NCBI GenBank assembly: GCA_947589395.1
Contig: CANQAA010000002.1
Span: 1-59,745 of the forward strand
Length of the DNA stretch: 59,745 nucleotides
Source: an uncultured Clostridia bacterium
GTDB taxonomy: Bacteria > Bacillota > Clostridia > Christensenellales > CAG-917
Reading direction: 5' to 3'
Position 1 is the first letter of the stretch, and each line of letters opens with the position of its first letter. Of the stretch, positions 21,098 through 58,654 are shown piece after piece. Position numbers and translations under genes: made by a program. A model generated the notes under the pieces. That model had not been told where the DNA came from. It ran no database searches and was given only the letters and a program-made list of their open reading frames with translations.

Positions 21098-21199
21098 AGC
21101 ATTATCTCCTTTTGGGCGGATTTTTTTGATGTATATTAATAATACATTATATTTAAAAAAAGTCAACCGAAAATCAATAAATATTCAAAATATTATAGC

Positions 21200-21270: not shown

Positions 21271-21325
21271 GCGGTGTATAATTTTATTGTGAGAACAGAA
21301 TATTAGTCAATTGAAAAGGAACGGC

Positions 21326-21463: not shown

Positions 21464-21492
21464 AAGTTTCACAAAAAAAACTCAACACAGGT

Positions 21493-21566: not shown

Positions 21567-23069
21567 TTAAAGTTTTATCTCGTCGAGACGATTCTTGACG
21601 CTCTCAAGCCACTCTTCCGCGCTGTTCTTTGCCGCTTGCATGGCTTGATCGAACGTCTCTTTTGCCTCTTCGAGCGTGGACGTTATGCTCGACTCGAGCT
21701 GTTTCACGCCTTCTATATCTTCTTCGGTGAGTTCCATCTTGTCGTAAACGCTCTGCTTTGCTTCGGATATCTTTGATATTGTGTTGTTCACGTCGAACAG
21801 GCTCTTGAAGTCTATCTTGTCAAGCCCGAGCCATTCGGACACGCCGTTCATAGCGTCCCATATCTTCGTGAACACGGCGTTTGCCTTTTCGCTTATCCCA
21901 AGCTGCTCGTTGAGTTCTGAGATCTTTTGCTTTATCGAAGAGAGAATGGCGGCAAGCGCGTCCTTGATGGACTGACTGTCCTTGCGCTCGATGGCGTCCT
22001 CTTCCCCTTGCTCCACGATGTCCATGACCTCTTCGTACGCCTCCTCGAAGGCGGGACGGGCGGACGCGTCGAGGTTGCGATAGAGCTCGTTCATATATGA
22101 GCGCACGCTCGTCTTCGTTATCTCGCCGTTTTCGTCCGCGATCTCCTTTTCGAAGATGTCCTCAGTCAGATTTTTGAAGAAAGAACCAACTTTTTTGAAG
22201 GCGTCCTTGACGTCGTCGAAAGTGAGAATGGGATTTTGAATGTATTCCTTCAAAGAGTTGTAATAGTGAGAAAGGGTGTTTTCCGTTGAGTTCAAAACCG
22301 CGTATACGTTTGCGTAAAGCACCTTTGCGGAGTTCTTTGCCGCCGCGACGATATTTTCGGAATGAAGGGTTTTTCCAACGAAATATACTGAATAAAGTCC
22401 GTCTCTTGCGATTTGGCGGGTGTTTTGCAACGCAAACCTCGCCTCCGCGACAGTGCGTTTGTAGAGCGTGCCGAGCTTTGAATCGTAAGTGCCGGCATAG
22501 TCGTTGACGGTCTTTAGCGCCTCGCTGTCGTTTGAAGGAAGGGAGCTCGCGTCAGAGCAAGCCATAGCCCTTGAGAGCATCCTGTATTTTCCTACGGACA
22601 TGTCGTAGCCCGCGCGCTCGATCTCGAACTTCGAGGCGAGGTCGAGGTCCTTTTGCACGTCGAGCTCGAAAGAGGCGAGAGCTTCGGACGCCTTCAAAAA
22701 TAGCTCCGAATCATTCTTTTCATCCAAAGAATACGCGCTTATCGACACGGTGCGTCTGTCTTCGGTTATATAGCCGTAGTCCTTTGCGAGTTGAACTATG
22801 TTTGCGAGCGCAACGCCGAGTTTTGCGTTGACGATGCCGCCCGCGTCAAACAACATCGCTCTCGCGTCGCCGTTTGCGCCGTACGCGCTCATCACGTTGT
22901 CGTTTTGGTCGAGGACGAGCTCGATGGACGGATTGATGTCAACGGCGACGAACGAGGTCGCCTTTGGCGGATCTTCGGTAGCGGGAGAGGGTCGCGCGTT
23001 GCACGCGACAAGGCAACTCATCAAAGCCAACGCCATTGCGGCGAGAAGCAAAATTTTGAGTTTTTTCAT
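21567..23069 (-). CDS. hypothetical alpha-helical lipoprotein
   Basis: MKKLKILLLAAMALALMSCLVAC lipobox and GGAGG SD. An N-proximal VDINPSIELVLDQNDNV segment is followed by a long charged, helical C-terminal half. Family not recognised. Confidence 0.8.
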   Translation of the reverse strand: MKKLKILLLAAMALALMSCLVACNARPSPATEDPPKATSFVAVDINPSIELVLDQNDNVMSAYGANGDARAMLFDAGGIVNAKLGVALANIVQLAKDYGYITEDRRTVSISAYSLDEKNDSELFLKASEALASFELDVQKDLDLASKFEIERAGYDMSVGKYRMLSRAMACSDASSLPSNDSEALKTVNDYAGTYDSKLGTLYKRTVAEARFALQNTRQIARDGLYSVYFVGKTLHSENIVAAAKNSAKVLYANVYAVLNSTENTLSHYYNSLKEYIQNPILTFDDVKDAFKKVGSFFKNLTEDIFEKEIADENGEITKTSVRSYMNELYRNLDASARPAFEEAYEEVMDIVEQGEEDAIERKDSQSIKDALAAILSSIKQKISELNEQLGISEKANAVFTKIWDAMNGVSEWLGLDKIDFKSLFDVNNTISKISEAKQSVYDKMELTEEDIEGVKQLESSITSTLEEAKETFDQAMQAAKNSAEEWLESVKNRLDEIKL

Positions 23070-23332
23070 ACCTCATCCTCCGATTATTAATTATGTTATC
23101 GCAAAAAACTTAACGGAATATAGTAAATATCATAAAGATTTGTTAAGAAACATATCGATTTTCGGACAAAATATATAGAAAATCCGTCCGAATTGCTTAA
23201 AAATCTTTCACAAGCGCGATTAAAAGTGAATTTTCGGTTGCCAAGAAAACTATTTGATGTATAATATATGTTGATATAATATTCACAATAACTATGTGCA
23301 TGGCGCAAAACGCGTCTCACAAAGAGGAAAAA

Positions 23333-26278
23333 ATGAAAAAAGTTTTGTTTACGGCGCTGCTTGTCGCGCTCATCGCCGTCGTGGCGGTCTCGGCAGTGGC
23401 GTGCAATCCGGACGGGAATCGCAGAAATCCCGGCTACAACGAGTACGAGACGGGCACCTACACCGTCACTTTCAACGCAAACGGCGCGGACAGCTCGACA
23501 GACGCGGCGAACCTCACCGGCGTTAAATACGGCTCGACCATCGCATATCCGACGGACGGCGACGGCAACAGATACGTCCCGACCAAGCTCGGATACAACT
23601 TCCTGTACTGGGAGTGGACGGATGCAAACGGCGCAACGCGGCAGTTCCGTTTCGAGGGCGAGAGCAACCCCGACGTCATCACCAAAAACACCACGATCAG
23701 CGCGGCGTACGAGGCGAAAAAGTTCGAACACGTCATCAACTACACCTCCGGACTGGAATATGAGATCATGTCAAACGGCAGCGTGAAATATTCCCTCGTC
23801 GACGACTTTTACGGAGCAGAGTGCAACAAGGTCACCATAACTCACAGCGACGGCGAGGAAGTCAAGTTCGTCTCGGAGTTCAAAAAGGCGAACGACAACT
23901 TCAAGTGCGCCTACATTGTCAACGCCGACGGCACTGTGAACACGGAGAACAAATTCTGCTTCTGGTATTACGTCATTCAGCAAAAGGACGATCAAGGCCG
24001 TCTTTTATACGTCAAGTCCGACGGCGAGCTCACCGCCGATCCTGCTGAGGCGATGAAAGACGCAAACGACGACCCGACGCCGTGTCTGAAGCCCATTCAG
24101 TTCACCAAGTGGAAGGAAGAGAGCAAGGACGTCGTCGCCTCTATGGAGACCTACGGGCTTTACGAGAGCCTCACGCTTTATCCCATGTTTGAGCAAAACT
24201 TGCCAAAGGTCACGGTCGAGTTCGAGGGCGGACACAGCGAAGTGTATCCCTTAAACGGCACGATCTACGAGAGCGTGAGCGAGGAGGCAAAGTCCCAACT
24301 CAACGTTTTGCAAGGCGAGGAGTTTGCATATTGGTATTATCAATTGGAAAACAAGGACAGCGAGGGCAACGTCACGTCGTACAGCGACTTCGAGTTCATC
24401 TTCAAGCCCGATCCTCAGGTCGACGAGGATGGCAATGAGGTCGAGCCGGAAGCCTCCAAGACCCCGACGGATCTTCGCGACGCAACGGGCAACAAGGGCG
24501 TGTTCACCCCCGTCACCCTCAATCTCAAGGCGAGGCGCGTGAGCGTGAGAAGGATGGAGAATCCCGCCGCGTTCGAGGCGTTCTGCAACGAGGCAAGAAA
24601 CTATTTCGCCGATGAGAGAACGCTTCTTGCAATAGAGGAGGGTCAGCGCACTCCCGAGCAAAAAGAGCAGCTCGAGGCGGTGCAGGCGAACATAAGGTCT
24701 TTGCTCACCGCAAAGCTCGTGTTTGCAAGCGGAATGAACTTTGTTTTGTCGGCGGACGACAAATATGCCCCCTTTGACGCGGCGCATGCGTTTGAGGGCA
24801 CGATAACGAGCGAAGGCGCCGCCGTCACGCTCACAATATCTCTTGACATCAACTTCAAAGACCTCTCCGAAGACGAGCTCAAAAAAACGGAATATTCGCT
24901 TTTCGGCTACGTCAAAGGCAAAATCGAGAACATAAACGTCGCTTTCAGCGCAAACGTGCAAAATATTCGCCTTGTGAAGGGCAATCTGTATATCGGCGCG
25001 TTGGCGGCGGAAAGCTCCGGAACGATAAGAAATTGCGAAGTCAACGTGGCGCAAGCGTCCTTCTTCGGCGGCGAGGAAGCAGACCTCGAGACGGGTGGCA
25101 GAGTGGTGTTCGGCGGTCTCGTCGCAAGAAACTCCAACCCCGAAGCGGAGGATGATATGGGCGTCATCGAGAGCGTGAGAGCGACCGTTAATAGTCTCGA
25201 CATTGTCCGCGTGAGCGCAACGGTCGGCGGTATCGTCGGCAACAACCTCTCCTCAACGTCAGTGAAAGAGAGCGAAGCGACGCTCACTCTCAACTCCATC
25301 GACGACGCGACCTTCAGGGCGATCCTCGAAGTGGGCGGCCTCACAGGCACGAACGGCGGCACGATAGAGGGATCTCACGCGACCATGCTTATGAATGCGG
25401 GCGCGCAACTCAAACTTTCAACGGGCACGCTGTCCATCGGCGCGCTTACGGGCAGAAACAGCCGCGCAGTCGTGAGAAGCTACGGCAAGATAGGCGCGCT
25501 TGCAACCGGAACGGAAAACGCGAAGGCGGTGGAGTTCACGTTGCTTGGCGGCGCTCTCAATGTGGGCGGGCTTGTCGGTCACAACGAGGGCTACGTCTAC
25601 GATTGCTACAGCGAGGACGTCATCACCGTCAACGCTCCCGCGACCGTGACTTCGGCTACTCTCAGCGTAGGCGGACTCGTCGGCAACAACAACGGCGACA
25701 AATTCAGCACCAGCCAAACGGAAACCAGCGTGGGCGCGATATCTTATAGCTACACTCGCGGCAGCATCCTGATCAACGTTGCGGACGGCGCAAAGAATGT
25801 CAACGTGAACGCGGGCGGCCTCAGCGGTCAACAGCTCAGCACCCGCCTCATGAACGCCTTCACGGCGATGTCCATCGACGCGCACATCAAGCTCGACGAG
25901 GGGCTCGGCAATCAGGCGAACATAGGCTATCTGTTCGGCAAGCTCTTTGAAAAAGCGGAGGACTCCACTTACAGGGCGAGACTCTACTATATCGACGACA
26001 ACGAGGGAGCCGGACTCAAGCTCAACGACGAGCCGTACAAGATCACCCAAAAGACGGAGGACGGCGAGGAAGAACCCACGTCCGAGAGCAATTTCGGCAA
26101 CATCTACGGCACGCTTATAAGCAGCAAGGAACTCAACTATTCGTTGCTCACCGACAACAGCAGCCTCAACTTCGACAGCCGCGAAAAAGCGGGCTCGACC
26201 TCTTCAAATCGTCTCTATGTGTGGACTCTGCCCGAGAGCGATGTGACCGAAGGCCCGTTCTATCCGACCTTGAACTGA
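23333..26278 (+). CDS. large surface lipoprotein with a Flg_new-type repeat and an array of GLUG-like repeats
   Basis: Preferred start MKKVLFTALLVALIAVVAVSAVAC (ATG 23333, AAGAGGA upstream). YTVTFNANG...GYNFLYWEW is the Flg_new-type repeat. Recurrent GGLVARNS / VGGIVGNN / GGLTGTNGG / GGLVGHNEG / GGLVGNNNG motifs are typical of GLUG beta-helix repeats. Confidence 0.85.
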   Translation: MKKVLFTALLVALIAVVAVSAVACNPDGNRRNPGYNEYETGTYTVTFNANGADSSTDAANLTGVKYGSTIAYPTDGDGNRYVPTKLGYNFLYWEWTDANGATRQFRFEGESNPDVITKNTTISAAYEAKKFEHVINYTSGLEYEIMSNGSVKYSLVDDFYGAECNKVTITHSDGEEVKFVSEFKKANDNFKCAYIVNADGTVNTENKFCFWYYVIQQKDDQGRLLYVKSDGELTADPAEAMKDANDDPTPCLKPIQFTKWKEESKDVVASMETYGLYESLTLYPMFEQNLPKVTVEFEGGHSEVYPLNGTIYESVSEEAKSQLNVLQGEEFAYWYYQLENKDSEGNVTSYSDFEFIFKPDPQVDEDGNEVEPEASKTPTDLRDATGNKGVFTPVTLNLKARRVSVRRMENPAAFEAFCNEARNYFADERTLLAIEEGQRTPEQKEQLEAVQANIRSLLTAKLVFASGMNFVLSADDKYAPFDAAHAFEGTITSEGAAVTLTISLDINFKDLSEDELKKTEYSLFGYVKGKIENINVAFSANVQNIRLVKGNLYIGALAAESSGTIRNCEVNVAQASFFGGEEADLETGGRVVFGGLVARNSNPEAEDDMGVIESVRATVNSLDIVRVSATVGGIVGNNLSSTSVKESEATLTLNSIDDATFRAILEVGGLTGTNGGTIEGSHATMLMNAGAQLKLSTGTLSIGALTGRNSRAVVRSYGKIGALATGTENAKAVEFTLLGGALNVGGLVGHNEGYVYDCYSEDVITVNAPATVTSATLSVGGLVGNNNGDKFSTSQTETSVGAISYSYTRGSILINVADGAKNVNVNAGGLSGQQLSTRLMNAFTAMSIDAHIKLDEGLGNQANIGYLFGKLFEKAEDSTYRARLYYIDDNEGAGLKLNDEPYKITQKTEDGEEEPTSESNFGNIYGTLISSKELNYSLLTDNSSLNFDSREKAGSTSSNRLYVWTLPESDVTEGPFYPTLN

Positions 26279-26329: not shown

Positions 26330-26830
26330 ACTTCTCGACGTGCTCAAGCACGCAAACCTTGAAGGTTTGACTACAGAAGCGCGCTCGCTTTGAAAGCAAG
26401 AGAACCAAAAGCGCGAGATAGACTGCAGTTTGAAATAAGTTATCGTTTGCTCGCTAGATAGGTTATAGTTTATTAAACAATCCCCTCAGTCTGCGACCGC
26501 ATGTACGTTGCGCAGATTGAGGGGATTGTCAAACTACATTTCGTCTAAGAGCGTCTTTATTAAGCGTGCGTTACTATGTTTCAAACGAGTTATCATCATG
26601 TTCAAACTACACTTCGAACAAGTGCCGCCTTTTATAAGTACGCCCTGAGTAAGTGTTCGTTAGTTATGCTTTAATAAGTTCTCGTTGTGTTCAAGCAGGT
26701 CTTTGATTAGTGCTCGTTAGTTATACTTCGAATGAGTAATCGTCGTTTATAAGCACGCCCTGAATGAGTGCGCGTTAATTTGCTTCGAACAAGTGTGCGT
26801 TTAGTATAAGTGCGCTCCAATAAGCGATTG
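26330..26830 (+). repeat. intergenic array of degenerate tandem repeats (about 57-nt subunit, about 116-nt higher-order period), interrupted by a palindromic element
   Basis: TTTATAAGTACGCCCTGAGTAAGTGTTCGTTAGTTATGCTTTAATAAGT (26630) compares with TTTATAAGCACGCCCTGAATGAGTGCGCGTTAATTTGCTTCGAACAAGT (26746). Repeated GAGTGC(G/T)CGTTA...CTTCGAA cores occur throughout. Confidence 0.8.
26477..26529. repeat. 19-bp-stem palindromic element, a compact relative of the 49741-50111 element
   Basis: ACAATCCCCTCAGTCTGCG (26477-26495) pairs with CGCAGATTGAGGGGATTGT (26511-26529), with one G-T mismatch and a 15-nt loop. Both flanks are shared with the 49765-49797 and 50052-50078 arms. Confidence 0.85.
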
Positions 26831-45985: not shown

Positions 45986-48900
45986 ATGAAAAAGAAATTT
46001 ACGTTTTTGATGATCGTCGCGCTCGTCGCGCTGCTCGTTGCGGTGACGATGGTCGCGTGCAATCCGAAAGATGCAAAATTCACGGTCACGTTCTCGCTTG
46101 GAGACGGGGTGGAAGGCGACGCTCCCGCGCCCATCAAGGCGGCTGAAAACGAACAGATCGTTCTTCCCAACGTCACGCGCGAGGGCTTCACGTTCTTGGG
46201 CTGGAGCGACGGGGAAAACACATATGCGCCCGGCGATTCCTTCACGGTCGTTGCGGACGTCACTCTCACCGCCACCTGGCATGACAATGACGCGCCCATC
46301 TACACCGTGACATTCTCGCTTGGCGAGCTCGAGGGCATCGCGACCCCCGTTCAGGCGATCAAGGCGGAGGCAAACGTGCCCATTGTGCTTCCCGCCGCCA
46401 CGCATACGGGCTACACGTTTTTGAGTTGGAGCGACGGCGACGACGTCTACACCGCCGGCTCATATTACACCGCGACTGCAGACGTCACCCTCACGGCGAA
46501 TTGGCGCAACGACAGCCTGCGCACTTTCACGGTGACGTTCTCGCTCGGCGAGCTTGCGGACTTGGCGGTCGCGCCTCAACCCCAAGTGGTAAACGACGGG
46601 GCGACGATACACCTTCCCGCCGCGCCTGTCATCGCGGAATACAACTTCCAATATTGGGAGCTTGAAGGCACGATCTCGCACTACGATGAAGACGACGAGT
46701 ACGAAGTCCGCGCGAACGTCACCTTCGTCGCCCGCTACCGCGACAACGGCAGAGTCCCTCAGGAATGGCGCGGGTCATGGATTGTCAAAGGGTCCGACGC
46801 TTGGGTTGCGTCGTCGATCTTCAACGAAGCGGTCATGTTGACAAAGGACGACATCTATTATTGCGGGTTCAAGGGCACGGACTATGAAGTCACCCAAACG
46901 GGTTCTATCAAGTTCAAAGTGACGTATTATTTCGGCGAAGTGGAAGAAATGACGCCGTTGATCCTTGAAGTTTACGAGGAGAACGACAAACTTTGGTTGC
47001 GCAGTTGGGGAAGGGCAGATTATGACTACAGTCAATCCACCGGTTCAAAACCCCCGTTTGCGCCCGATGAGTTGGAAAGGAAGACATATTCTGTGACGTT
47101 CTACGCTCTTCCCGATATAGAGCTTGGCGAAAATAACAATGTGTATTCCTATTATCTGCAGGACGACGGCACAGCCTCCGAAGAGGATCTTGCGGGAGTT
47201 CCCACTGCAGACGAGATGGAAGAGGGATTTGTCGGTTGGTACAGCATGAGGGGAGCAAACTATCCGCCGGAAGAGGAGTTTGACCCGGAACAAAAACTTT
47301 ATACCTACGTCACATATTACGCCAAATATTGCTTCTACGGCACATACAGGGACGAAGACGACAACTTTATCACTCTGGACGGAAAATATGCGTTTGTCAA
47401 CAGCGCTGCGGGCGAAGAATACAATCTGGATTATGAAACGAAAACTTTGTTTGTTGGTGCAAGAAGATACAAAATAAATTGGAACACATGGACGTTTGAG
47501 GACATCTCGGTCGACGCGGAGGAATTTGACGGCGAGTGGTACGGAATGTTCAAGGACAACACCTATTATAACTTCAAATTTAACGGAGTCGGATACGGTT
47601 GGATATATCTCACCGTTGCGGGACGCCCGGAGGATACGGGCACGTCAGTGCAATATACCGTTGCCGCTATCAACACAATTCAGTTTACTTTCAAAGGCGA
47701 GACCTACAGAATCGAGATCAATGATGACGGCACTCTCACAGTCAGCGACAACGAAAATGAATACGTTGTGGTCAAAAAAGGCACGGTTGTGGGCACATGG
47801 ACAAACAGCGACAAGAGCAACAAGCTGGTGTTTACTGCGGATACCGTATCCGTCAACGGCGAAACCGCCGTTGCATATGAAAAACAGGGGAGCACATATC
47901 TCGCTACATACAACGATGAGCAGCTCACGATAACCGTGAATGAGGTTGGCGTTTTGAGCGTTGCCTCAAGCAGTGACTCGAGCGAGATCGCGGACGATTA
48001 TATGCCCGGCGAAAACGGCTTTGTCCCGCCCGTGTTGGGGGTGAAGGATAAGTTCGAAGGCGTTTGGTATGGCGTGTACGGAATAACGACAGATTATGAA
48101 GGCGATGAATATACTGTATATATCGTCGTTACTTTGGACGGTTGGGGCAATGTCAGCGTTAAAAATTATTCCGTTTATGTGTTCGGTGAGCAAGAGTATG
48201 TTGAGAATGAATCGGGAGGAACAAATCATTATCAACTCACCGACGACGATCATATCACTTGGGTGATGACCGGAATGTATACGCTTTGGGGCGGTGAGTT
48301 CGCGGCAAATGGAACGCTCATATTCGACCATGAGGCGTCGGATAGATCAAAGAATCTTGTTTTGGTCAAGGTGGGCGAGATAGAAGCAAATTGGGTGAAC
48401 GAGAGCAACACAAAGGCGTTTGTTTTCAACGACGGTCAAGTCACATTTGGGGACTACACCGCACCTTACGTCAAGGGCGATGGCAATTGGACGGCGACTC
48501 TCAACAACGAAAACCTCACGTTCACGATCACGGAATACGGCAAGTTGGTCGTGACTTCCGACAACCCCGACAGTGAGTTTGCGGGCAACGATTTCCATCC
48601 GCAAAAGGAAGTCTCGCTTGTTGCGCCCGAACCCCCAACGCCCACAATTCCCGCAGAGTCCGAATATTACGGCACTTGGGAGGGCAGTGACAGTGATGGC
48701 GATTACACGCTCGTCATCAAGTCCGACAAGAGCGGCACGATCGACTATGACGCGGGCTACATGTCGGGGGAAGAACCGTTCGACGGTTCATTCACATGGA
48801 CATATGATCCTGCAACAGGCAAAATCAGCTTCACAGGCGCGTCATTCTATGGTGATGAACAATACAGTTGCTTGATAAGCGACGGTCAGATGATCATGAC

Positions 48901-49600
48901 CGTTTCGGGGTCAGACATTACTCTCACCAAAACAGCCGACGAAGGCAGCAAAGAGCAAGTGGACGATTCCGCGCAAGCATTTTACGGCACTTGGGAAGGC
49001 AGTGACGGAGACGGAGATTTCACGCTCGTCATCAAGTCCGACAAGAGCGGGACGATCGACTATGAACCTGATTATTGGGATGAAGAACCGTTCAACGGTT
49101 CATTCACATGGACTTATGATCCTGCGACGGGTAAAATCAGTTTCACAAGTGCGTCTTTCTATGAAGATGCCGATTATACTTGCGAAATTAGCGGCGGCAA
49201 GCTCGTGATGTCTTATGGAAGCACTTCCGTCACGCTCACCAAGACGTCGGGCGGTACAACCGGCGGCGACACAAGCGGTGGCGGACAGGACGTCCCGCCC
49301 GCAAAGGATCATGATGACGCTTGGTATCACAACGCGCTCAAAGGCAGTTGGAGCGGATTTGAACATACCGATGAATGGACATACTATCTTGAGTTCGACG
49401 GCGAAGGTAATGTTACATTGTCCTATGCCGATATCGGACCACATACGGTGCTCGAAACGGTAGCTTATACGATCAACGAAGATGGAACGATAACATTCCA
49501 TAAAACCTTTTCTTTCAAAATAGTTGTTGTTGATGAAACGCACATCACCGTTACAATGGACGGAGAGACCTACAATATCGAAAAGCTTCCAGAAGCATGA
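45986..49600 (+). CDS. large surface lipoprotein with three Flg_new-type repeats and a long modular Tyr/Thr/Gly/Asp-rich body
   Basis: MKKKFTFLMIVALVALLVAVTMVAC lipobox. Repeats are FTFLGWSDGEN...LTATW, YTFLSWSDGDD...LTANW and YNFQYWELEG. The remainder has recurring WYG/YGTW...LT(I/V)T modules of unknown family. Confidence 0.88.
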   Translation: MKKKFTFLMIVALVALLVAVTMVACNPKDAKFTVTFSLGDGVEGDAPAPIKAAENEQIVLPNVTREGFTFLGWSDGENTYAPGDSFTVVADVTLTATWHDNDAPIYTVTFSLGELEGIATPVQAIKAEANVPIVLPAATHTGYTFLSWSDGDDVYTAGSYYTATADVTLTANWRNDSLRTFTVTFSLGELADLAVAPQPQVVNDGATIHLPAAPVIAEYNFQYWELEGTISHYDEDDEYEVRANVTFVARYRDNGRVPQEWRGSWIVKGSDAWVASSIFNEAVMLTKDDIYYCGFKGTDYEVTQTGSIKFKVTYYFGEVEEMTPLILEVYEENDKLWLRSWGRADYDYSQSTGSKPPFAPDELERKTYSVTFYALPDIELGENNNVYSYYLQDDGTASEEDLAGVPTADEMEEGFVGWYSMRGANYPPEEEFDPEQKLYTYVTYYAKYCFYGTYRDEDDNFITLDGKYAFVNSAAGEEYNLDYETKTLFVGARRYKINWNTWTFEDISVDAEEFDGEWYGMFKDNTYYNFKFNGVGYGWIYLTVAGRPEDTGTSVQYTVAAINTIQFTFKGETYRIEINDDGTLTVSDNENEYVVVKKGTVVGTWTNSDKSNKLVFTADTVSVNGETAVAYEKQGSTYLATYNDEQLTITVNEVGVLSVASSSDSSEIADDYMPGENGFVPPVLGVKDKFEGVWYGVYGITTDYEGDEYTVYIVVTLDGWGNVSVKNYSVYVFGEQEYVENESGGTNHYQLTDDDHITWVMTGMYTLWGGEFAANGTLIFDHEASDRSKNLVLVKVGEIEANWVNESNTKAFVFNDGQVTFGDYTAPYVKGDGNWTATLNNENLTFTITEYGKLVVTSDNPDSEFAGNDFHPQKEVSLVAPEPPTPTIPAESEYYGTWEGSDSDGDYTLVIKSDKSGTIDYDAGYMSGEEPFDGSFTWTYDPATGKISFTGASFYGDEQYSCLISDGQMIMTVSGSDITLTKTADEGSKEQVDDSAQAFYGTWEGSDGDGDFTLVIKSDKSGTIDYEPDYWDEEPFNGSFTWTYDPATGKISFTSASFYEDADYTCEISGGKLVMSYGSTSVTLTKTSGGTTGGDTSGGGQDVPPAKDHDDAWYHNALKGSWSGFEHTDEWTYYLEFDGEGNVTLSYADIGPHTVLETVAYTINEDGTITFHKTFSFKIVVVDETHITVTMDGETYNIEKLPEA
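48656..49255 (+). repeat. near-identical in-frame tandem duplication (315-nt period, 2 copies) inside the 45986-49600 gene
   Basis: TACGGCACTTGGGA(G/A)GGCAGTGAC... starts at 48668 and again at 48983. The peptides YGTWEGSDSDGDYTLVIKSDKSGTIDY...FTWTYDPATGKISFT are repeated. Confidence 0.92.
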
Positions 49601-49621
49601 GCGAAATGAAAACCAAAAACG

Positions 49622-49648
49622 AGGACGGCAAGAGCCGTCCTTGTTTTG
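49622..49648 (+). terminator. intrinsic terminator
   Basis: AGGACGGC-AAGA-GCCGTCCT followed by TGTTTTG. Confidence 0.75.
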
Positions 49649-49740
49649 TATGAGCGGCGTTGGTTATCCCAACAAAAATGCGGATGTGTATGGACAAAAT
49701 TGAGACATGTATGCGAAAATTTGAAATATAACGCGTGCTT

Positions 49741-50111
49741 AATAAAGGACGCCCTTAGACAAAGTATAGTTTGACAATCCCCTCAGTCTGCGACCGCCCA
49801 AGCGGCGCAGCCAGCCCCCCTTACTAAGGGCGGCCTCGAGCGGGGGCTCTTGAAATATCACCAACCAACCGCGTTGAAGCATAGTTTGATGAGGGCTAAA
49901 AGAAAATGAAAAACTTGAGAATAACTTGCTTTCGCTCGAAGAGTTTTTGTAAAGAATAAAGCACAATGACTAATTTTGCTCAAACAGAGGATACGCTTTA
50001 TATTCCCACATAAGGCCGCCCTTTGTAAGGGGGGGGGGCTGCCCGAATGGGCTGAGGGGATTGTCATCTAATTTTCGCCGACAGGCGCACCATTTAGGGG
50101 CGTCCTTTATT
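49741..50111. repeat. 371-bp nested inverted-repeat element (MITE-like, invertible-segment-like or structured RNA)
   Basis: Three mirrored inverted blocks are present: AATAAAGGACGCCC (49741-49754 / 50098-50111), TGACAATCCCCTCAG (49772-49786 / 50052-50066) and CCCCCCTTAC(T/A)AAGGGCGGCCT (49815-49836 / 50013-50038). Confidence 0.8.
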
Positions 50112-50200
50112 ATGTGCGCGTTACTTATGCTTCGTACATGTGCTCGTTATGCTCAAACGGGGTTTCGATTGAGTGCGCGTTAATTTTGGTTCGAATTGGA
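50112..50200 (+). repeat. short array of the same ~57-nt repeat family as 26330-26830
   Basis: ATGTGCGCGTTACTTATGCTTCGTACATGTGCTCGTTATGCTCAAACGGGGTTTCGATTGAGTGCGCGTTAATTTTGGTTCGAATTGG. Confidence 0.7.
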
Positions 50201-50243
50201 AACTATCGCATCCACCCATGCTTTGAGCGGAAAAAGGTGGAAA

Positions 50244-50361
50244 TTTTATGCATAATTTCAAAAGTGGGCGATTTGATTGTACACAGTGTTGTTTTCACCC
50301 TTAAAAACAAATAAAAATGCATAAAATTTCAAAAATATACAGATTTTATGCATAAAATTTC
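50244..50361 (+). promoter_or_regulatory. three TTATGCATAA(A)AT boxes, including a perfect 16-bp palindrome, upstream of the giant protease gene
   Basis: ATTTTATGCATAAT is at 50244-50257. TGCATAAAAT is at 50318-50327. The perfect palindrome ATTTTATGCATAAAAT is at 50343-50358. The last two are 31 bp apart. Confidence 0.5.
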
Positions 50362-50518: not shown

Positions 50519-53500
50519 ATGTTTAAGAGTGAAAAGAGACTTGCAACAGTGTCGTTGATCCTCATCGCGGTGATGGTGTTCACTTTGCTGTTCAACGTCG
50601 TCACGGCAGGAAACATATCCGACTTGATCTCAAGCGACAGCGTGAGCGGCATCGAGAGCACAACGTCCACTTCCTTCAAAAAGAGCGGACTGAGCTTTGA
50701 CGGCGTTTCGCAAGAGCTCATCAACAAGGAGCTTGCTCAGCAAAACATCGCGTCCTACGACGGCGAGCGTTGGGCGATCGTCGAGCTTGAGGGCACAAAT
50801 TTGTATTCTTCCTTCAAAGCGAGCGGCAGATACGGCGACTTCCAGGAGTACGTCGCGAGCGCGGAGGGCAGAAAGCTCAGAGCGTCCATCGAGAAAAATC
50901 AAAACGACTTTTTGAAGAAACTCGACAGGCGCGGGCTGAGCTACACTTACAAATATTCCTACTACACGATCAACAACGGCGTGGCTCTCAAGATAGACGC
51001 GGACGCGTTTAACGCAATAAGAGAGATGGCGGGCGTGAAGGACGTGTATTATTCCGAAACGTACGACGTGCCAAAGGTCGAAGCGGTCCAAAACAACGCG
51101 CACGTCTACACGACGGGCATTTACGACACCTCCGCTCTCAAGAACATAGACACCGACGGCGACGGAACGTTCGAGAGCTATCAGGGCGAGGGCATGGTCG
51201 TTGCCATCATCGACACGGGCATCGACTACAACCACCCGGCGTTTTCCAATATGCCCACAAACCCCAAACTCTCAAAAGAGGACGTTGCCGATCTCATCGC
51301 GAGCGCGAACGGCAGCGGGCACTTTTATGCGGCGGGCGGCGTCGACGATCTTTATTACAACGCAAAGATCCCCTTCAGCTATGACTACGCCGACGACGAC
51401 ACGAACGCGTACGCAGGGTTCGAGTCTCACGGCACTCACGTCGCGGGCATCGTGGCGGGGCGCGACGACGGCAAAGTCGTCAACGAGAACACACACGAGA
51501 CGTTCACGGGCGTCGCTCCCGAAGCTCAGCTCGTCATCATGAAGGTGTTCACGGACGATCTCGACAGCCCCGTGCTCGGCGGCGCGAACAGCGTGGACAT
51601 TTTGAGGGCGGTCAACGACTGCGTGAGGCTTGGCGTCGACGTCATCAACATGAGCTTGGGCACTTCCGCAGGCTTTGCGGACGGCAAGTCCAACAACTTC
51701 CTCAACAGCATATACGGCAGCGTAGAGGACGCGGGCATCAGCCTTGTCGTCGCGGCTTCAAACGACTATAGCTCCGGCTTTGGCGGCGGCAACGGCACCA
51801 ACCTCGCCTCCAACCCCGACAGCGGCACGGTCGGCGCGCCTTCCACATATCAAGCGGCAATTTCAGTCGCTTCCATCAACGGACAGATGTCCAAATATAT
51901 CCTCGCAAACGACGACGAAAATCAGGTCGCGTTCATCACCAACTCCTCCGACCAATACGGCAACGAGCTGGACTTCATTGACGACCTGTATGCGAAATTT
52001 TCCGATCAAATCGACGCGGACGGACGGCTGACGTTCAAGTACGTCCTCATCGGCGGCGTGGGCGAAATTTCAAACTATAACTCGCAAGTCTACAACAGGC
52101 TGAACGACAAGACCTACAGGGGCACCCCCGTCGCGGGCACGATCGCGCTCGTCAAGCGCGGCACATCCACCTTCGCCGAGAAAGTTCAGCTTGCAATGGA
52201 CAACGGCGCGGACGCCGTCGTCATCTACAACAACGTGTCGGGCGTGATAAGGATGTCGCTCGGCGACGTCGAAAACCCCGTCCCCGCGTGCTCGATCTCA
52301 ATGGACGCCGCAAACTACATTTTGGCAAATACTCCGTTTGACGGCATGGGCACGATAACGCTCGACCGCGACGAGTTCCAGGCAGGACCTTTCATGAGCG
52401 ACTTCTCAAGCTGGGGCCCCACTCCGAGCTTGCAACTCAAGCCCGAGATCACCGCTCACGGCGGCGAGATAACGTCGGCAGTCGGCGGCGAGAAGAACAA
52501 CGAGGAAAACGGCGCGTACGACATCTACAGCGGCACGTCAATGGCTTCCCCGAACATGGCGGGCGCAGTCGCGCTTTTGAGACAATATCTCACCAAAAAG
52601 GTCGATTCTAATCTCAAAGGACCCGAACTCGAGGCGAGAGTCAATCAACTTTTGATGTCCACAGCGACCATCGCGCGCAACGAGGAGGGCAATCCGTACT
52701 CCCCGCGCAAACAGGGCGCAGGACTTGCCGATATAACGTCGGCTCTGATGTCCGAAGGCTATATCTACGTTGAAAAAGACGACAAAATTTTGGACAAGAC
52801 CAAGCTCGAACTTGGCGACGATCCGACAAAATCGGGCGTTTATACCCTCGAATTTGTCATAAAAAACATCAAAGACGTTCAGCAGGTCTATTCTCCGACC
52901 GCTTACGTCATGACCGAAACTATGGCGTCGGACAACAAGACCGTCGCCGAAAAGGCGTTCATGCTCGCGCCCTCATCAAACGACTATTGTTCGGTGCAAT
53001 ACTTTGTTGACGGCGTCGCTCACACGGGCGACATCACGGTGGGCGCAAACGGCGAAAGCCACGTCAAAGTGGTCATCACACTCAACCAATCCGCAAGGGA
53101 TTATCTTGACGCGAACTTTGTCAACGGCATGTACATCGAGGGCTTCGTGTCCTTCGACAACAAGAGCGAAAAAGGCATAACGCTGGGCATTCCGTATCTC
53201 GGCTTCTACGGCGATTGGAACGCCGCGCCTCTATTTGACTACGACGTGTTCGAGATCGCCGAGAGCGAGCAGGACACAAGCGTCCCCGAAGAGAAAAAGC
53301 TCAAGGCTTCCGCCGCCGCAACACAGGTCGTCGGAATGTACTATGAGGACGAAATGCTCCTGCCGCTCGGCACTTATCTCTACGCTCAGGCGGAAGAGGA
53401 CGTTCAGATGTATCCTTCGAGGGACAAGATGGCGGTGTCGATGTACGACGAGCAGGGCAACAGGACGCTTTACGAGATATATTGCGTGTGGGGCGGACTG

Positions 53501-56500
53501 CTAAGAGGCGCTGCTTATATGGACATAAAGGTCACAAACAGTGCGACGGGCGAGGTCGTCTATCAACATCAGCTTGAAAACATCGCCAAGTCCTATGCGG
53601 CAGGCGGCTCGGGAAGAGGCGCTCTCATCGAACTTGCCCTCAACCCCTATCAATGGGGAATGTTGAACAACGAGACCTACACCGTCGAAGTCAACGGCCA
53701 ACTCGACTATGAGACGGACACGGACGCTCTTGCCAAAAACCCCAACAACGGCAGCTGGAAGTTTGACTTCACCGTCGACTACGAAGCTCCCAAGATGACG
53801 GGTTACAGGGTGCGCTATGTGCCTTATGAGCAATACGGTCAGACAAAATATCACATCTGGCTTGACGTTGACGTCGTGGACAACCACTATGTGCAGGACG
53901 TCATCCCCGCGCATCTTCTTGACGATGTCGGCAGATGGAACGAGACTCTGGAAGAGGACGGAGAGGGCAACCGCGTCTATCCTCAGACTCTCACCCTCAT
54001 CACGGACTACGCGATAGCGGTTCAGGGCGAAAAGGGCAAGCAGAGCACAGTCTCGTTTGAGATCACAGACTACTACGAGGAGTTCGTGAACAAGGGCAAC
54101 CTCTACATTCAGATAGAGGACTACGCGATGAACTCCGAAGTTTACAACATAATTCTCGACGAGGAGTCCCTCTCCTTCCCGGAGACGATCGACTTTGTCG
54201 AGGACGCCGCAGGCAAGCTGAGACTCCCCGCCGGAAGCATCGGCAAAAACGCGGACGGCTCTCTTTACAATATATATAGTTTGTCCCTGCGCCCGAACGA
54301 GCTTTACACTTTGAACTGCACGGAGATCCTTGACAGATACACCTGGACGGGGACGACCGACGCGGTGCTCGCAAAGGGCAATCAGATCTATGCAAACGCG
54401 CTCACCGAAGGACAAGCGGTCACGCTGTATCTCACGGACGGCGCTTCCGTGCACGATCCGTACTTCGATCCCGACGAGGACGTGGATAAGATCTACGCGG
54501 CGGTCAGAGTGGACGTTGCAGGCGCGGAACTCACCAAACAGAGGGTAGAGGGCATCTCGTTCAAGCCCATTTTGAACGGCGACGATTGGGTGCAACCCGC
54601 CTCAGGCGAGGTCGAGCTCAATCCCGGTATGAACATTCAGTTGCAGATAGAGGTCTCCCCGTGGTATCTGAACATTCCGGGCGGCTACACTTACACTTCG
54701 ACAAACTCTTCCGTCGCAACCGTGAGTACGGACGGCGTGCTCACCACAAACGGCAGAGGAACCGCGACGATCACGGCAAGGGCGAACACGGGCAGCGCGT
54801 TCGAACTCTACACGGCGCAATTCATCGCGGTCGTGGGCGAGGAGTTCGAAGTGACAAGCTACACGCTTTACGACTACTACGGCGGGCCAAACGTCGTCAT
54901 CCCGGAGGACATCAACGTGATGTACCTCGACGAGGAGTGCTTCAGAAACAGGGAGGACATCGAGACGGTCGTGTTGCCCTCAACGCTCATGCAGATCCCG
55001 GAAGGCGCGTTCATGAACTGCACGAACTTGAGAGAGGTCACGATACCCGGCGGCTGCCGCGTGGTCGGCAATATGGCGTTTTTGAACTGCCCGAACCTTG
55101 AAAAGATAATACTTCCCGACTACACGGACGGCGAACACAACGTGCTTGACGGCGTTCCCGGACAGTTGATGGTCGGCAGATACGGCTTTGCGAACTGCCC
55201 CAAACTCGAGCACATCGCTCACGCTACCGTCCAAAAGAACGGCAACGTCTTGAGCTACACCGTCGACAACAACGACGGCGGCTGGCTCAGGGTCACGACG
55301 CTTTACGACTACGCCTTTATGAACTGCACGGCGCTTGGCGCGATTGATATCAGCAACCTGCAGGTCTCGGGCGAGGGCGTGTTCACGGGCTGCACGAACT
55401 TGTCGTCTGTGACGACGAGCAGGGCGACGGCGATAGGAGCGTATATGTTCGATGGTTGCACGAACTTGAGAACGTTTGAGTATAATGCGACGACAGTGCC
55501 GGACGGCGCGTTCTTCAACACGAAGAATCTTCAGACGATCACCTTCACACAAGAGTTGCTTTCCATAGGTTCTGAGGCGTTCAGAGGCGCGGGCATCGAG
55601 ACGATCACGCTCCCGGACGGCAAATTCGACATCGGCGCGTATGCGTTCAGTCAGTGCCCCAATCTCACCACCGTGAAGCTTTCTGCCAACACGGAGATCA
55701 AGTTCGACGAGACAATCGCGACGCTCTTCCCGCAATATACGGAAGATCTCACGCAATACTACGAAGACGCATACGGTCAGGTCCTCACGGAGCTTGCGGT
55801 CAATCCGTTTGGCGGCAGCGACCTCTTCACGGCGTACGAGCTCGTTGGAGAAAGCGAATTTTATCAAGTGAAGGACGGCGTGCTTTACAGCAAGGACGGA
55901 AGCGCTCTCGTCAGCGTTCCCGTCGGCAAGACGCTCAGCGCAATTCCTTCTGACGTCACGGCGATAGGCGCGCTCGCGCTTGCGGGCAACAAAATCACGA
56001 ACGCGGATCTCAGCTCTGTCACGAGCATAGGCAAGTACGCGTTTGCGCAGAGCAATCTTAGAACTGTCACACTCCCCGAGATAGACAAAGTGGACGACGG
56101 CGTGTTCTTTGACTGCACGAATCTTGTGAGCGTAACGGGGCTTGACAAAATCAAGCACATCGGCAAATTTGCGTTTGCGTTCACGGGCGATCCCGACACG
56201 ACGGGCGCGACGCTTTTGAACGTGGACCTTGTCGCCGCGCAGACGATCGACAACTATGCGTTCTACAACAGCACGATAGAGAACATCACGGGCGGGCGCA
56301 CAAACAGAAACGAGGCGCTTCAAAACGTGACGGAGGTCGGACAATATGCGTTTGCGTATACGCTCGTTGACAACATCAACATGCCCAACCTCACAAAGAT
56401 AGGCTACGCGGCGTTCTCCAATATGTACGCGTACAGAAACCAACAGGCAGTTGGGCTTGAGAGCATCACGGTCGGCGGCGTGACGGAGATGGGCGACTTC

Positions 56501-58654
56501 GCGTTTGCGTATAACAACGCGCTTGTGACGGCAACTCTCGGCGCGGGCACGACGGCAATTTCAAACGCCGCGTTCATGGGCGAGGAAGCAGAGGTCGAGA
56601 GCGGACAGATCTACTATTATTCGCCGCTTGAAAGGGTCAACATCCCCACGAGCGTCAAGTCGATAGGACAGGCGGCGTTCGCGTACAATTGCGCGCTTGA
56701 AACAATCAATCTCGCAAATGTCGAGACCTTCGGCGCGCAGGCGTTCTACTTCGACCTGTCTTTGGAAAACGCGGATCTTGGCAAGGCAAAGATCATCGGC
56801 GACGGAGCGTTTTATCTGACGAGCATCGTCGACGCGGACCTGAAAGAGGCGGAGTATATCGGCGACATGGCGTTCTATCTGAGCTCGGTTGCGACTCTCA
56901 ACATGCCAAAGGCGAAATATATCGGCTCGTACGCGTTCAGGGGCACGGAGCTTGAGGAAGTGACCATCCCCGCAACGCTCGACACGAGCTACGTCTACGA
57001 GTGGGTGGACATTGACGAGATGGGCTACAGCGAAAACCGTCAGGGCAGCACTGCGGACAACTGGAACGGCGATCCACGCAGGCGCAACGTCAAGGCGTAC
57101 GGCGACGGCGCGTTTGCGGACATCTCGACGCTTCAGAACATCTATGTCGATGGCGACGTCGAGATCGAAGTCGTCGTGGACGGCAAAAAGAGAACGGCAA
57201 CCGGCAACGGCAAATATTTCTCTCTTGACGGCGTGCTTTACTCCGTGCTGCCAAATGGCTACAGGATAGAGCAATTCCCGGCAGGCAAGGGAGGCGAGGA
57301 AAACTTGTTGGGCAAGTACGTCATCGTTGACGACACGGTGACCGTCGCGGCACACGCGTTCGAAGGCGCGTTTATGCTCGACGAGGTGACCCTGCCCAAC
57401 ACCATGCTTCAGATCGGCGGCGGCGCGTTCTACAACACGTCGATAACAAAATATAACTTCCTCAGCGTCAAAGCGCCCACGTTGCTTGCGGAATACGACG
57501 AATATATCTATCACTTGATGGCGTATGTCACGGGCGAGGAAGACCTTTTGGGCATGACCAACACGGAGTATTACAACAACTTCGTGCCCGACGACATCGT
57601 CGCCAACTCCGACGATCTCGGCATCCCTGTCGACTACGAGCTGTTTGCCAATGCGGACTGGGTGTTTGACACCTGGCTCGGCTCTACGGCGCAGATGCTG
57701 TATCAGGACTTCAAACTGCTTGCGGTCGTTCCCAAGAACGGCTCGGGTTACGACTTCTGGCTGTACAAGAACTTCTTCTCGACCATTCAGCAAACCGAGA
57801 CGGACCTTCCCGACGTTGCGACTTCCAACGCGATAAAGGCGATCGGCAACTTGCCGACGGTCGAAAGCATAGCGGACATTGCGTCGATCGAAGATCTCAA
57901 CAAGGCGGGCGGCGCGGCTGAGGCTGTGGCAAACGCAAGAAAGCTCTACAACAAGATAACCGACCCCGTGCAACTCGAACTCGCAAAGGACTCCTACGCG
58001 GCGCTTGCGGCGGCAGAGGCGGCTTTAAGAGACCTCAAAAAGAACAAGTTCGGGCAGACCATCAACGTTACTTCCGTGACAGCTACGGGCAACTACAAGT
58101 CCCGCTATGACAACATCAAGTCCAAGTTCGACCCGACCGGCTTGCAACTGAACGTTGTGTTTGAGGACGGCTCCGAGATCGTTGTGGAAGGAAATCAGTT
58201 GAACTTCTCCGACATCCGCATCAAGAGGCAGACCTTCGGCGAGGGCGAGGGCAGCTACACGACCACAAGCTACTATGTGACCTCCACCTACGTCGACGAA
58301 AACAACAAGGCGTGGGACATCGAGCTCACCGTCAACCTCGACAATCCTCCGGATGAAAACTACACCGAAGAGGAAGAAGAGAACAAGCTCTCAAACGGCG
58401 CTATAGCGGGAATTGCGGTCGCGGCGGCAGCGGCGGCAGTGTTGATCGCTCTTGCCGTTGTGCTCACCGTGCTCGTCAAAAAGGGCGTGATCAAGGTTGC
58501 GAGCAAGCTCCCGAAGGCTGCGGCAAAGAAGGCTAAAGCGGGCGATGACCTCATCGACGACAAGGACGAGTTCTATGCGGACGACGCGGACGTCGACGTT
58601 GACATCGACGCGGACGTTGACGCGGACGACATAGACGGCGGAGACTTTGAGTAA
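50519..58654 (+). CDS. giant (2711 aa) cell-envelope subtilase: propeptide, S8 peptidase with PA insert, Ig-like (Big_2-type) segment, very long BspA-type LRR region, C-terminal TM anchor and acidic tail
   Basis: GGAGG lies 5 nt before ATG 50519. Signal-anchor MFKSEKRLATVSLILIAVMVFTLLF. Catalytic triad: D (IIDTGID, 51212), H (HGTHVAG, 51428), S (GTSMASP, 52538). PA-type IALVKRGTSTFAEKVQLAMDNGADAVVIYNN. SSVATVSTDGVLTTNGRGTATITA is the Ig-like segment. LRR units AFxNCxNLxxVxxP span about 54900-57480. TM helix at 58400-58477. Confidence 0.9.
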   Translation: MFKSEKRLATVSLILIAVMVFTLLFNVVTAGNISDLISSDSVSGIESTTSTSFKKSGLSFDGVSQELINKELAQQNIASYDGERWAIVELEGTNLYSSFKASGRYGDFQEYVASAEGRKLRASIEKNQNDFLKKLDRRGLSYTYKYSYYTINNGVALKIDADAFNAIREMAGVKDVYYSETYDVPKVEAVQNNAHVYTTGIYDTSALKNIDTDGDGTFESYQGEGMVVAIIDTGIDYNHPAFSNMPTNPKLSKEDVADLIASANGSGHFYAAGGVDDLYYNAKIPFSYDYADDDTNAYAGFESHGTHVAGIVAGRDDGKVVNENTHETFTGVAPEAQLVIMKVFTDDLDSPVLGGANSVDILRAVNDCVRLGVDVINMSLGTSAGFADGKSNNFLNSIYGSVEDAGISLVVAASNDYSSGFGGGNGTNLASNPDSGTVGAPSTYQAAISVASINGQMSKYILANDDENQVAFITNSSDQYGNELDFIDDLYAKFSDQIDADGRLTFKYVLIGGVGEISNYNSQVYNRLNDKTYRGTPVAGTIALVKRGTSTFAEKVQLAMDNGADAVVIYNNVSGVIRMSLGDVENPVPACSISMDAANYILANTPFDGMGTITLDRDEFQAGPFMSDFSSWGPTPSLQLKPEITAHGGEITSAVGGEKNNEENGAYDIYSGTSMASPNMAGAVALLRQYLTKKVDSNLKGPELEARVNQLLMSTATIARNEEGNPYSPRKQGAGLADITSALMSEGYIYVEKDDKILDKTKLELGDDPTKSGVYTLEFVIKNIKDVQQVYSPTAYVMTETMASDNKTVAEKAFMLAPSSNDYCSVQYFVDGVAHTGDITVGANGESHVKVVITLNQSARDYLDANFVNGMYIEGFVSFDNKSEKGITLGIPYLGFYGDWNAAPLFDYDVFEIAESEQDTSVPEEKKLKASAAATQVVGMYYEDEMLLPLGTYLYAQAEEDVQMYPSRDKMAVSMYDEQGNRTLYEIYCVWGGLLRGAAYMDIKVTNSATGEVVYQHQLENIAKSYAAGGSGRGALIELALNPYQWGMLNNETYTVEVNGQLDYETDTDALAKNPNNGSWKFDFTVDYEAPKMTGYRVRYVPYEQYGQTKYHIWLDVDVVDNHYVQDVIPAHLLDDVGRWNETLEEDGEGNRVYPQTLTLITDYAIAVQGEKGKQSTVSFEITDYYEEFVNKGNLYIQIEDYAMNSEVYNIILDEESLSFPETIDFVEDAAGKLRLPAGSIGKNADGSLYNIYSLSLRPNELYTLNCTEILDRYTWTGTTDAVLAKGNQIYANALTEGQAVTLYLTDGASVHDPYFDPDEDVDKIYAAVRVDVAGAELTKQRVEGISFKPILNGDDWVQPASGEVELNPGMNIQLQIEVSPWYLNIPGGYTYTSTNSSVATVSTDGVLTTNGRGTATITARANTGSAFELYTAQFIAVVGEEFEVTSYTLYDYYGGPNVVIPEDINVMYLDEECFRNREDIETVVLPSTLMQIPEGAFMNCTNLREVTIPGGCRVVGNMAFLNCPNLEKIILPDYTDGEHNVLDGVPGQLMVGRYGFANCPKLEHIAHATVQKNGNVLSYTVDNNDGGWLRVTTLYDYAFMNCTALGAIDISNLQVSGEGVFTGCTNLSSVTTSRATAIGAYMFDGCTNLRTFEYNATTVPDGAFFNTKNLQTITFTQELLSIGSEAFRGAGIETITLPDGKFDIGAYAFSQCPNLTTVKLSANTEIKFDETIATLFPQYTEDLTQYYEDAYGQVLTELAVNPFGGSDLFTAYELVGESEFYQVKDGVLYSKDGSALVSVPVGKTLSAIPSDVTAIGALALAGNKITNADLSSVTSIGKYAFAQSNLRTVTLPEIDKVDDGVFFDCTNLVSVTGLDKIKHIGKFAFAFTGDPDTTGATLLNVDLVAAQTIDNYAFYNSTIENITGGRTNRNEALQNVTEVGQYAFAYTLVDNINMPNLTKIGYAAFSNMYAYRNQQAVGLESITVGGVTEMGDFAFAYNNALVTATLGAGTTAISNAAFMGEEAEVESGQIYYYSPLERVNIPTSVKSIGQAAFAYNCALETINLANVETFGAQAFYFDLSLENADLGKAKIIGDGAFYLTSIVDADLKEAEYIGDMAFYLSSVATLNMPKAKYIGSYAFRGTELEEVTIPATLDTSYVYEWVDIDEMGYSENRQGSTADNWNGDPRRRNVKAYGDGAFADISTLQNIYVDGDVEIEVVVDGKKRTATGNGKYFSLDGVLYSVLPNGYRIEQFPAGKGGEENLLGKYVIVDDTVTVAAHAFEGAFMLDEVTLPNTMLQIGGGAFYNTSITKYNFLSVKAPTLLAEYDEYIYHLMAYVTGEEDLLGMTNTEYYNNFVPDDIVANSDDLGIPVDYELFANADWVFDTWLGSTAQMLYQDFKLLAVVPKNGSGYDFWLYKNFFSTIQQTETDLPDVATSNAIKAIGNLPTVESIADIASIEDLNKAGGAAEAVANARKLYNKITDPVQLELAKDSYAALAAAEAALRDLKKNKFGQTINVTSVTATGNYKSRYDNIKSKFDPTGLQLNVVFEDGSEIVVEGNQLNFSDIRIKRQTFGEGEGSYTTTSYYVTSTYVDENNKAWDIELTVNLDNPPDENYTEEEEENKLSNGAIAGIAVAAAAAAVLIALAVVLTVLVKKGVIKVASKLPKAAAKKAKAGDDLIDDKDEFYADDADVDVDIDADVDADDIDGGDFE

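Follow-up and report, generated by a model that had tools for sequence, protein, structure and literature searches.

A nested inverted repeat between two surface-protein genes of an uncultured Clostridia bacterium is probably a mosaic of two families of dispersed hairpin repeats

Several kinds of short inverted repeat have been described in the intergenic DNA of bacteria. The REP sequences of Proteobacteria, with their BIME and REPIN arrangements, are scattered between the genes of a genome, with copy numbers from tens to hundreds, and flank the gene of RAYT, a Y1 HUH transposase. The BOX elements of Streptococcus pneumoniae are modular composites of hairpins, assembled from boxA, a repeated boxB and boxC. 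Bacterial MITEs, such as the Correia elements of Neisseria, are small and terminate in inverted repeats. Inverted repeats also delimit the invertons of C. difficile (cwpV and flgB) and of Bacteroides, which are switches flipped by a recombinase. Here we discuss a 371-bp nested inverted repeat (49741-50111) from an uncultured Clostridia bacterium, found in a stretch of 59,745 nt that we call the window. An earlier note on this DNA had hesitated between a MITE, an inverton and a structured RNA. We present evidence that the element is probably explained by a mosaic of two dispersed hairpin-repeat families.

The window is ordinary core chromosome, carrying a ribosomal-protein cluster, mfd, pth and fba. 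It also encodes at least five giant Flg_new, BspA-LRR or GLUG surface proteins (6031-8208, 18347-21166, 23294-26278, 45986-49600 and 50519-58654), and a gene for an RsgI-like anti-sigma factor (21567-23069, minus strand) is found directly upstream of the one encoding a 939-aa Flg_new surface protein (18347-21166, minus strand). The element had been placed after the terminator of the upstream gene and about 400 bp before a protease gene, and this context is correct. A terminator hairpin with T-run (49616-49647, plus strand; inverted repeat I11, with 14-nt arms at 93%) ends the gene of a 1204-aa Flg_new surface protein 5' of the mosaic, and the ATG of the gene downstream, encoding a 2711-aa S8 protease/BspA-LRR protein, is located at 50519, 408 nt past block 1.

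The three mirrored blocks of the earlier note were all recovered by a repeat finder, somewhat extended and far above chance. Block 1 (49741-49754 / 50098-50111) is the perfect core of inverted repeat I3 (49729-49757 / 50095-50123; 29 nt, 86% complementary), block 2 corresponds to I8 (49772-49786 / 50052-50066; 15 nt, 100% complementary) and block 3 is the core of I2 (49807-49836 / 50013-50042; 30 nt, 90% complementary). When the intergenic region was shuffled 500 times with its dinucleotides preserved, a single shuffle contained any perfect 14-nt inverted repeat, compared with eight such seeds in the real sequence. The arms indeed enclose an AT-rich core or spacer of 176 nt (49837-50012, no strand), whose GC content is 38.6% against 56-58% in the arms.

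The blocks are not, as had been considered, the nested terminal repeats of one element: blocks 2 and 3 belong to one repeat unit and block 1 to a second repeat. In either arm, blocks 2 and 3 together make up a copy of a double-hairpin unit of about 60 nt, composed of GACAAYCCCCTCAG, a variable stem-loop (hp1), and a second hairpin (hp2) made of CAGCTCCCC, a loop and GGGGAGC. They are recognized as the conserved parts of a single unit because metagenome-assembled genome (MAG) contigs show the identical order of a 17-mer, a variable hairpin, CAGCTCCCCTT, a loop and AAGGGGAGCC. The whole window was scanned, with filters off, using R2, a covariance model built exclusively from 54 aligned IMG/VR units. 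Both arms were significant and nothing else was, the next match having an E value of 0.14. Unit L (49769-49843, plus strand) scored 42.2 bits with R2 (E 2e-9) and 64.8 bits with R1; unit R (50006-50069, minus strand), convergent with unit L, scored 30.3 bits (E 2.5e-6) and 53.3 bits, respectively. Each carries all the parts of the family, namely the 5' tail GACAAYCCCCTCAG, a variable hp1 and an hp2 of the form CAGCYCCCC-loop-GGGGRGC. In unit L, the 5' motif is GTTTGACAATCCCCTCAG (block 2, 49772-49786), followed by hp1 (49788-49810, CTGCG.CCGC-CCAA-GCGG.CGCAG) and hp2 (49814-49834, GCCCCCCTT-ACT-AAGGGCGGC, block 3). Unit R possesses the same 5' motif (block 2, 50052-50066), a shorter and unlike hp1 (GCCC-ATTC-GGGC) and the same derived hp2 (block 3). 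The possibility that hp2 acts as an intrinsic terminator was dropped since no T-run follows it.

The two arms resemble each other in some parts and differ in others. The hp2 of both carries two derived substitutions in common, a compensatory change of T-A to C-G and a disrupting change of G to C, and therefore the arms belong to one lineage-specific subfamily or have been homogenised. Their hp1 sequences are unrelated and measure 26 nt in the left arm and 11 nt in the right one; the spacers between blocks 1 and 2 are equally unrelated, with 17 nt on the left and 31 nt on the right. The non-complementary stretches between the blocks exist because each arm has its own variable hp1. Judging from these alignments, the arms do not appear to be recent copies of each other, since their hp1 and spacers are unlike and the left arm is nearer to the right arm of a sister locus than to its own partner.

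This sister (26472-26534, no strand) had been interpreted as an internally deleted copy of the element. Such a relative does exist; however, it is not a simple deletion, as neither block 3 nor the core is present, the loop sequence is its own and block 1 is found at just one of its sides. It consists of a palindromic doublet of two inverted 5' unit halves (ACAATCCCCTCAG and stem), without hp2 or core, and R2 found only partial matches in it (E 0.14 and 0.29). Positions 49774-49797 are identical to 26477-26500 (24/24), and 49737-49792 match the reverse complement of 26511-26565 at 89% over 56 nt. The sister is 100% identical in L007, a contig of 1377 bp from the same species and the sole other assembly contig over the sister region, whose first base corresponds to position 26349 of the window. 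The start of L007 inside repeat-rich intergenic DNA may reflect an assembly break at repeats, or may be due to chance at about 2x coverage.

Block 1 is part of the second repeat, a 57-nt array unit with the consensus TTTATAAGCACGCCCTGAATAAGTGCTCGTTAGTTATGCTTCGAATAAGTAATCGTCG, which forms tandem arrays upstream of three promoters of the window. Tandem Repeats Finder (TRF) detected 57-nt arrays at 21328-21461 and 26631-26794, and an HMM of nine units (covering 21303-21473, 26542-26796 and 50092-50203) was used for nhmmer searches. At the element, an inverted array unit outside the training set (49720-49761, minus strand; E 2.4e-4) holds the left-arm block 1 within I3. On the other side, two direct array units, both included in the training set (50092-50145 and 50150-50203, plus strand; E 2.2e-10 and 9.3e-12), constitute direct repeat D1, and the first of them contains the right-arm block 1 (50098-50111). 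The block-1 copies are the inner parts of array units abutting double-hairpin units on both sides. Another array (26542-26796, plus strand; TRF period 57, 2.9 copies; nhmmer) follows the sister directly and precedes the promoter of the S10 operon. The third (21303-21473, minus strand; TRF period 57, 2.3 copies, 77% matches; nhmmer) is found upstream of the 939-aa surface-protein gene, with no adjoining double-hairpin unit. All three arrays are co-oriented with what lies downstream of them, namely the gene of the 939-aa surface protein, the S10 operon and the gene of the S8 protease.

Model matches to both repeat families thus establish the order inverted array unit, unit L, core, unit R and direct array units. 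Neither the whole element nor its core has another copy in the window, and a 20-mer from the core retrieved no second core copy from JGI metagenomes, its seven matches being chance hits in coding DNA. A derivation of the core from array units was considered and dropped, nhmmer with the array HMM finding no recognisable relation. A core 15-mer, TTTGCTCAAACAGAG (49973-49987), is also present in the repeat block upstream of S10 in a related species (contig L002, 7296-7310), and the similar strings GCTCAAACGGGG and GTTTCAAACGAG occur in array units (50150-50161 and 26578-26589); these resemblances hint that the core is decayed repeat material.

The double-hairpin family extends well beyond this locus. 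A 17-mer across block 2 was scanned over one genome per species; about 50 of the 59 matches were due to chance and served as negative controls, scoring about 20 bits with R1. The genuine ones came from Christensenellales/Clostridia MAG contigs (L016, L023, L029, L039, L044 and L062), among which L039 has three to four tandem units. A relaxed family pattern matched at least 120 IMG/VR loci, many of them multi-copy, with four to five units per 8-16 kb in relatives and a maximum of 10 copies in L124, a structural module of a phage that spans 14.7 kb. A 14-mer viral scan was uninformative. The unit thus belongs to a large family that is distributed among gut Clostridia (Christensenellales, Oscillospiraceae) and among the phages of these bacteria. 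The phage module (L124 1-14677, IMGVR_UViG_3300029705_006572) encodes terminase, scaffold, P22-like coat and baseplate proteins; almost every intergenic gap holds one to three units, nearly all in sense orientation, and partial inverse copies (GGAGGGGTTGT) lie between units. Integron attC sites were considered and dropped, given the lack of R'/R'' GTTRRRY motifs and the phage structural operon setting. Over the family, units are mostly intergenic and mostly co-oriented, neighbouring units being arranged in tandem in 27 pairs, divergently in 3 and convergently in 1; by crude ORF calls, 46 units point the same way as the upstream ORF and 17 the opposite way.

Comparison of near-identical contigs revealed that units come and go. 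One unit distinguishes a filled from an empty site (L082 versus L185), a composite of 141 nt is present or absent (L140 versus L096) and two tandem units in L083 correspond to one chimeric unit in L084. Three contigs of related species, L001, L002 and L003, all encode the S10 protein of the window and share a common gene order from peptidase to S10. L002 contains a block of about 400 nt made of unit and array, with an analogous array of about 29-nt period before S10 (7330-7540); the congeners L001 and L003 lack the block, and both array and unit are absent upstream of their S10 gene.

The family is absent from Rfam, and unit-rich loci had no match there at E <= 0.01. Where the family matches phages in GenBank or plasmids in PLSDB, the records carry no annotation, and literature searches on the unit motif and on repeat elements of Clostridia brought up nothing of relevance. 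Unannotated unit-like sequences of 32-47 nt, with 81-97% identity, were encountered in two Deinococcus plasmids and in the 861-kb replicon of Vescimonas fastidiosa (CP029777.1 327115-327159, NZ_AP026561.1 372635-372666 and NZ_AP023416.1 69512-69558). The motif may be broader than Clostridia, or these matches may be convergent. In several Christensenellales contigs (L002 7262-7290; L016 around 7000-7040, minus strand; L029 6575-6595; L039 around 2260-2290), double-hairpin units are adjoined by a second dispersed motif, CCTGTCATYCTGAG...GAAGAATC (also ...CGAAATGACA), that looks like another widespread short repeat family.

Variation within the double-hairpin family preserves its structure. Standard pairs occupy 95.9% of the pair cells in a set of 49 distinct units, against 44-57% pairing in slid controls, and 53 cells display double-sided change against 10.1 +/- 3.2 in shuffles. 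G-U pairs account for 3 of 706 cells in these units and for 4 of 181 hp1 pairs; such a near-absence of wobble is unusual for a structure selected in RNA alone. The 60 distinct hp1 inserts comprise 29 different stems, and shuffled inserts seldom pair. A C-GNA-G loop is found in 30 of these 60 hp1 on the strand complementary to the CCCCTCAG strand, compared with 1 of 60 on the unit strand, and 17 of the 60 contain the complete GCGNAGC. This sequence forms an extraordinarily stable DNA mini-hairpin encountered at single-strand initiation sites (PMC13037366), and d(GNA) loops have been described (PMC3201870). The family resembles d(GCGNAGC) mini-hairpin DNA (PMC13037366) in placing C-GNA-G on one specific strand in half of its distinct hp1; both window units differ in having no GNA loop, with CCAA and ATTC instead. 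A part for the hp1 GNA loops in priming or in SSB exclusion would be speculation.

A mosaic of two families of short intergenic repeats, in the manner of REP/BIME or BOX elements, accounts best for these observations; the element is probably not a mobile element of one piece, a switch or an RNA gene. In this reading, each arm would be a composite module comprising a 57-nt array unit (block 1) followed by a double-hairpin unit (block 2 tail, hp1, and hp2 as block 3), and the nested inverted repeat would be apparent only because two such modules sit convergently around the 176-bp AT-rich spacer. This reading is carried by the family membership of the arms, the multi-copy distribution of the unit, the array membership of block 1, the structure-preserving variation and the insertion/deletion polymorphism of the units. 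The hairpins would act in single-stranded nucleic acid, probably DNA, since their covariation is Watson-Crick-only and the GNA loops are asymmetric between strands. A trans-acting enzyme or recombination could spread the units; neither transposase nor RAYT was found among the window ORFs scanned or at family loci. A role of the units at the level of mRNA would likewise be compatible with the sense bias and with their location behind the coat gene and further late genes of phages. The palindrome studied here would have no dedicated role, except perhaps a block to read-through, termination or insulation between two genes that are large and probably highly expressed. Besides the transposase or RAYT that was sought and not found, other points count against the mosaic. 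The 59.7-kb window holds only four arms, two full units and the two partial ones of the sister, which limits the multi-copy claim for this genome, and the convergent layout is atypical, being that of 1 in 31 neighbour pairs. As alternatives, the derived hp2 substitutions could stem from a local inverted duplication or from homogenisation within one functional palindrome.

More specific interpretations are less probable. The units could be the recognition structures of an ssDNA-acting mobilisation system that spreads them among gut Clostridia and their phages, and the sister and the 371-bp element would then be REPIN-like doublets. This possibility, tentative and on balance unlikely, draws on the Watson-Crick-only covariation, the strand-specific GNA mini-hairpin, the conserved 5' tail and the filled and empty sites. 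A tblastn search of 1.08 Mb of family loci, with approximate queries and hence limited sensitivity, returned no IS200, IS608 or RAYT-like ORF.

It is quite improbable that the arrays and the hairpin module are protein-binding or architectural parts of strong promoters, those of the S10 operon and of the surface-protein genes, with the palindrome included. The position of the three arrays upstream of promoters, in the orientation of the downstream gene, would agree with such a function, as would the recurrence in L002 of the order hairpin unit, array, promoter and S10 in diverged sequence. However, L001 and L003 dispense with array and unit despite an S10 protein identical to that of the window, orthologues of the protease do so as well, and no binding protein or motif is known. 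A palindromic AT-rich motif, GAAATTTTATGCATAA / TTATGCATAAAATTTC and TTTTTGCATAAAATT, is present in two to three copies just 5' of giant surface-protein genes (window 50240-50361 and 21215-21256; L070 8470-8500 and 8790-8810; L071 9670-9700 and 9990-10010), and in other genera the genes of protease orthologues are preceded by similar motifs. A common regulator may use this motif as its operator.

The non-autonomous mobile element proposed earlier came closest among the three initial readings, inasmuch as the arms belong to dispersed, indel-polymorphic families; the repeating units are of about 60 nt and 57 nt, and not of 371 bp. We consider it very unlikely that a single MITE (49729-50123, about 395 bp), bounded by long composite terminal inverted repeats, inserted here and left the sister (26472-26565) as a deleted derivative. 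Imperfect terminal inverted repeats of about 108-111 nt, a shorter relative within the window and the insertion/deletion polymorphism of family units elsewhere would agree with such an origin. Yet no target-site duplication surrounds 49729-50123 (flanks GAAATA and CTTATG), the core is single in the window and in JGI metagenomes by its 20-mer, the arms differ in unrelated hp1 and spacer segments and the sister has sequence missing from the main element. Moreover, the outer repeat ends run into array units that are also found without a double-hairpin unit (21303-21473), and no transposase was detected. Like the Correia elements, the locus is small, has inverted-repeat ends, is intergenic near promoters and has no coding capacity; unlike them, it shows no target-site duplication, repeated full-length copies or cognate IS, and its inverted ends are independent dispersed units.

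An invertible switch, in which a recombinase encoded elsewhere flips the segment between the block 2 or block 3 arms and alters expression of the S8/BspA-LRR protease, is highly improbable, and the phase-variable inverton of the earlier note found no support. Ahead of a giant surface-protein gene, inverted repeats of 15-30 nt do enclose a segment of about 180-265 bp, as around the few hundred bp preceding such genes in C. difficile cwpV and flgB or at Bacteroides promoters. A weak promoter-like site (49691-49720) is also located directly 5' of the element, with room for a long leader of the cwpV type. Against this, a consensus scan for one promoter type found no sigma-70-like site in the core (49837-50012), and the region has two promoter-like matches versus 2.7 +/- 1.6 in shuffles. 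The window had been said to contain no recombinase or transposase, which holds for the 23 ORFs outside the ribosomal-protein cluster scanned against Pfam; neither a tyrosine or serine recombinase nor a RAYT was among them. The repeats are members of a dispersed family, normally single or tandem, and, when matches confined to the repeats are left aside, no inversion between inverted units is seen in related contigs; the apparent inversions in IMG/VR contigs were rejected as such matches, with collinear flanks. In related genera, the genes of protease orthologues are not preceded by the element: the best homologues are at most 59% identical and their upstream regions contain no units. The 1204-aa, 2711-aa and aldolase proteins had no match on record, and look-ups with L17 and S10 led only to same-species contigs of about 2 kb. 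From the other sample containing the species (ERZ27059666, with L007 and L320, about 2x coverage), no contig across the element locus was retrieved. Compared with known invertons, the element has no internal promoter-like site, nearby recombinase or observed orientation variant, its repeats come from a dispersed family, and the inverted repeats are the single inverton feature that it displays.

The least probable reading is that the plus strand is transcribed into a structured RNA, non-coding or cis-regulatory and about 370-400 nt long, which folds through long-range helices: the fold is very stable and somewhat better on that strand (z = -11.1 and -182 kcal/mol, versus -8.7 and -173 kcal/mol on the minus strand) and three of the four mismatches of the block-1 helix (I3 arms) are G-U on it, yet the window has no Rfam match at gathering score and only chance-level ones at E up to 10, the element follows a terminator with no framing promoter/terminator pair, no covariation supports the long-range helices because the whole element has no homologues, and the component units covary without G-U pairs and occur in both orientations relative to genes. 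Rfam searches of both repeat regions gave nothing, and no tRNA or tmRNA was found.

The locus is therefore fairly ordinary repetitive intergenic DNA, and the result is mainly cautionary. In a gut Firmicute, one readily takes an inverted repeat that precedes the gene of a surface protein for a phase-variation switch, and inverton finders relying on inverted repeats will flag repeat mosaics of this kind. A described family model would improve the annotation of MAGs and phages, explain contig breaks such as that of L007, which ends in the repeat region, and offer a handle on REP-like biology beyond Proteobacteria. The family appears to be undescribed, and the locus appears to belong among the interspersed hairpin repeats.

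Among these, REP, BIME and REPIN sequences differ from the double-hairpin family in having one hairpin where the latter has two, in residing in Proteobacteria and not in Clostridia and their phages, and in their neighbours, which here are mostly tandem and not inverted. No GTAG tetranucleotide stands next to the palindrome, the 5' motif of the family being GACAAYCCCCTCAG. Both are nevertheless short, imperfect, intergenic and multi-copy palindromes with a conserved single-stranded 5' tail, whose stem structure is kept through double changes, and both occur as singletons, tandem clusters and inverted doublets forming long hairpins, here the sister and L044. BOX elements bear no sequence similarity to the mosaic and differ in module order and in the inverted duplication; the array is also found alone here. 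They share with it a modular composite of hairpins around a tandem middle module of about 45-57 nt, a position just upstream of genes and strain-to-strain variability. By analogy, the element would work like REP/BIME/REPIN and BOX sequences while falling outside the REP definition, which calls for GTAG and RAYT, neither of which was seen.
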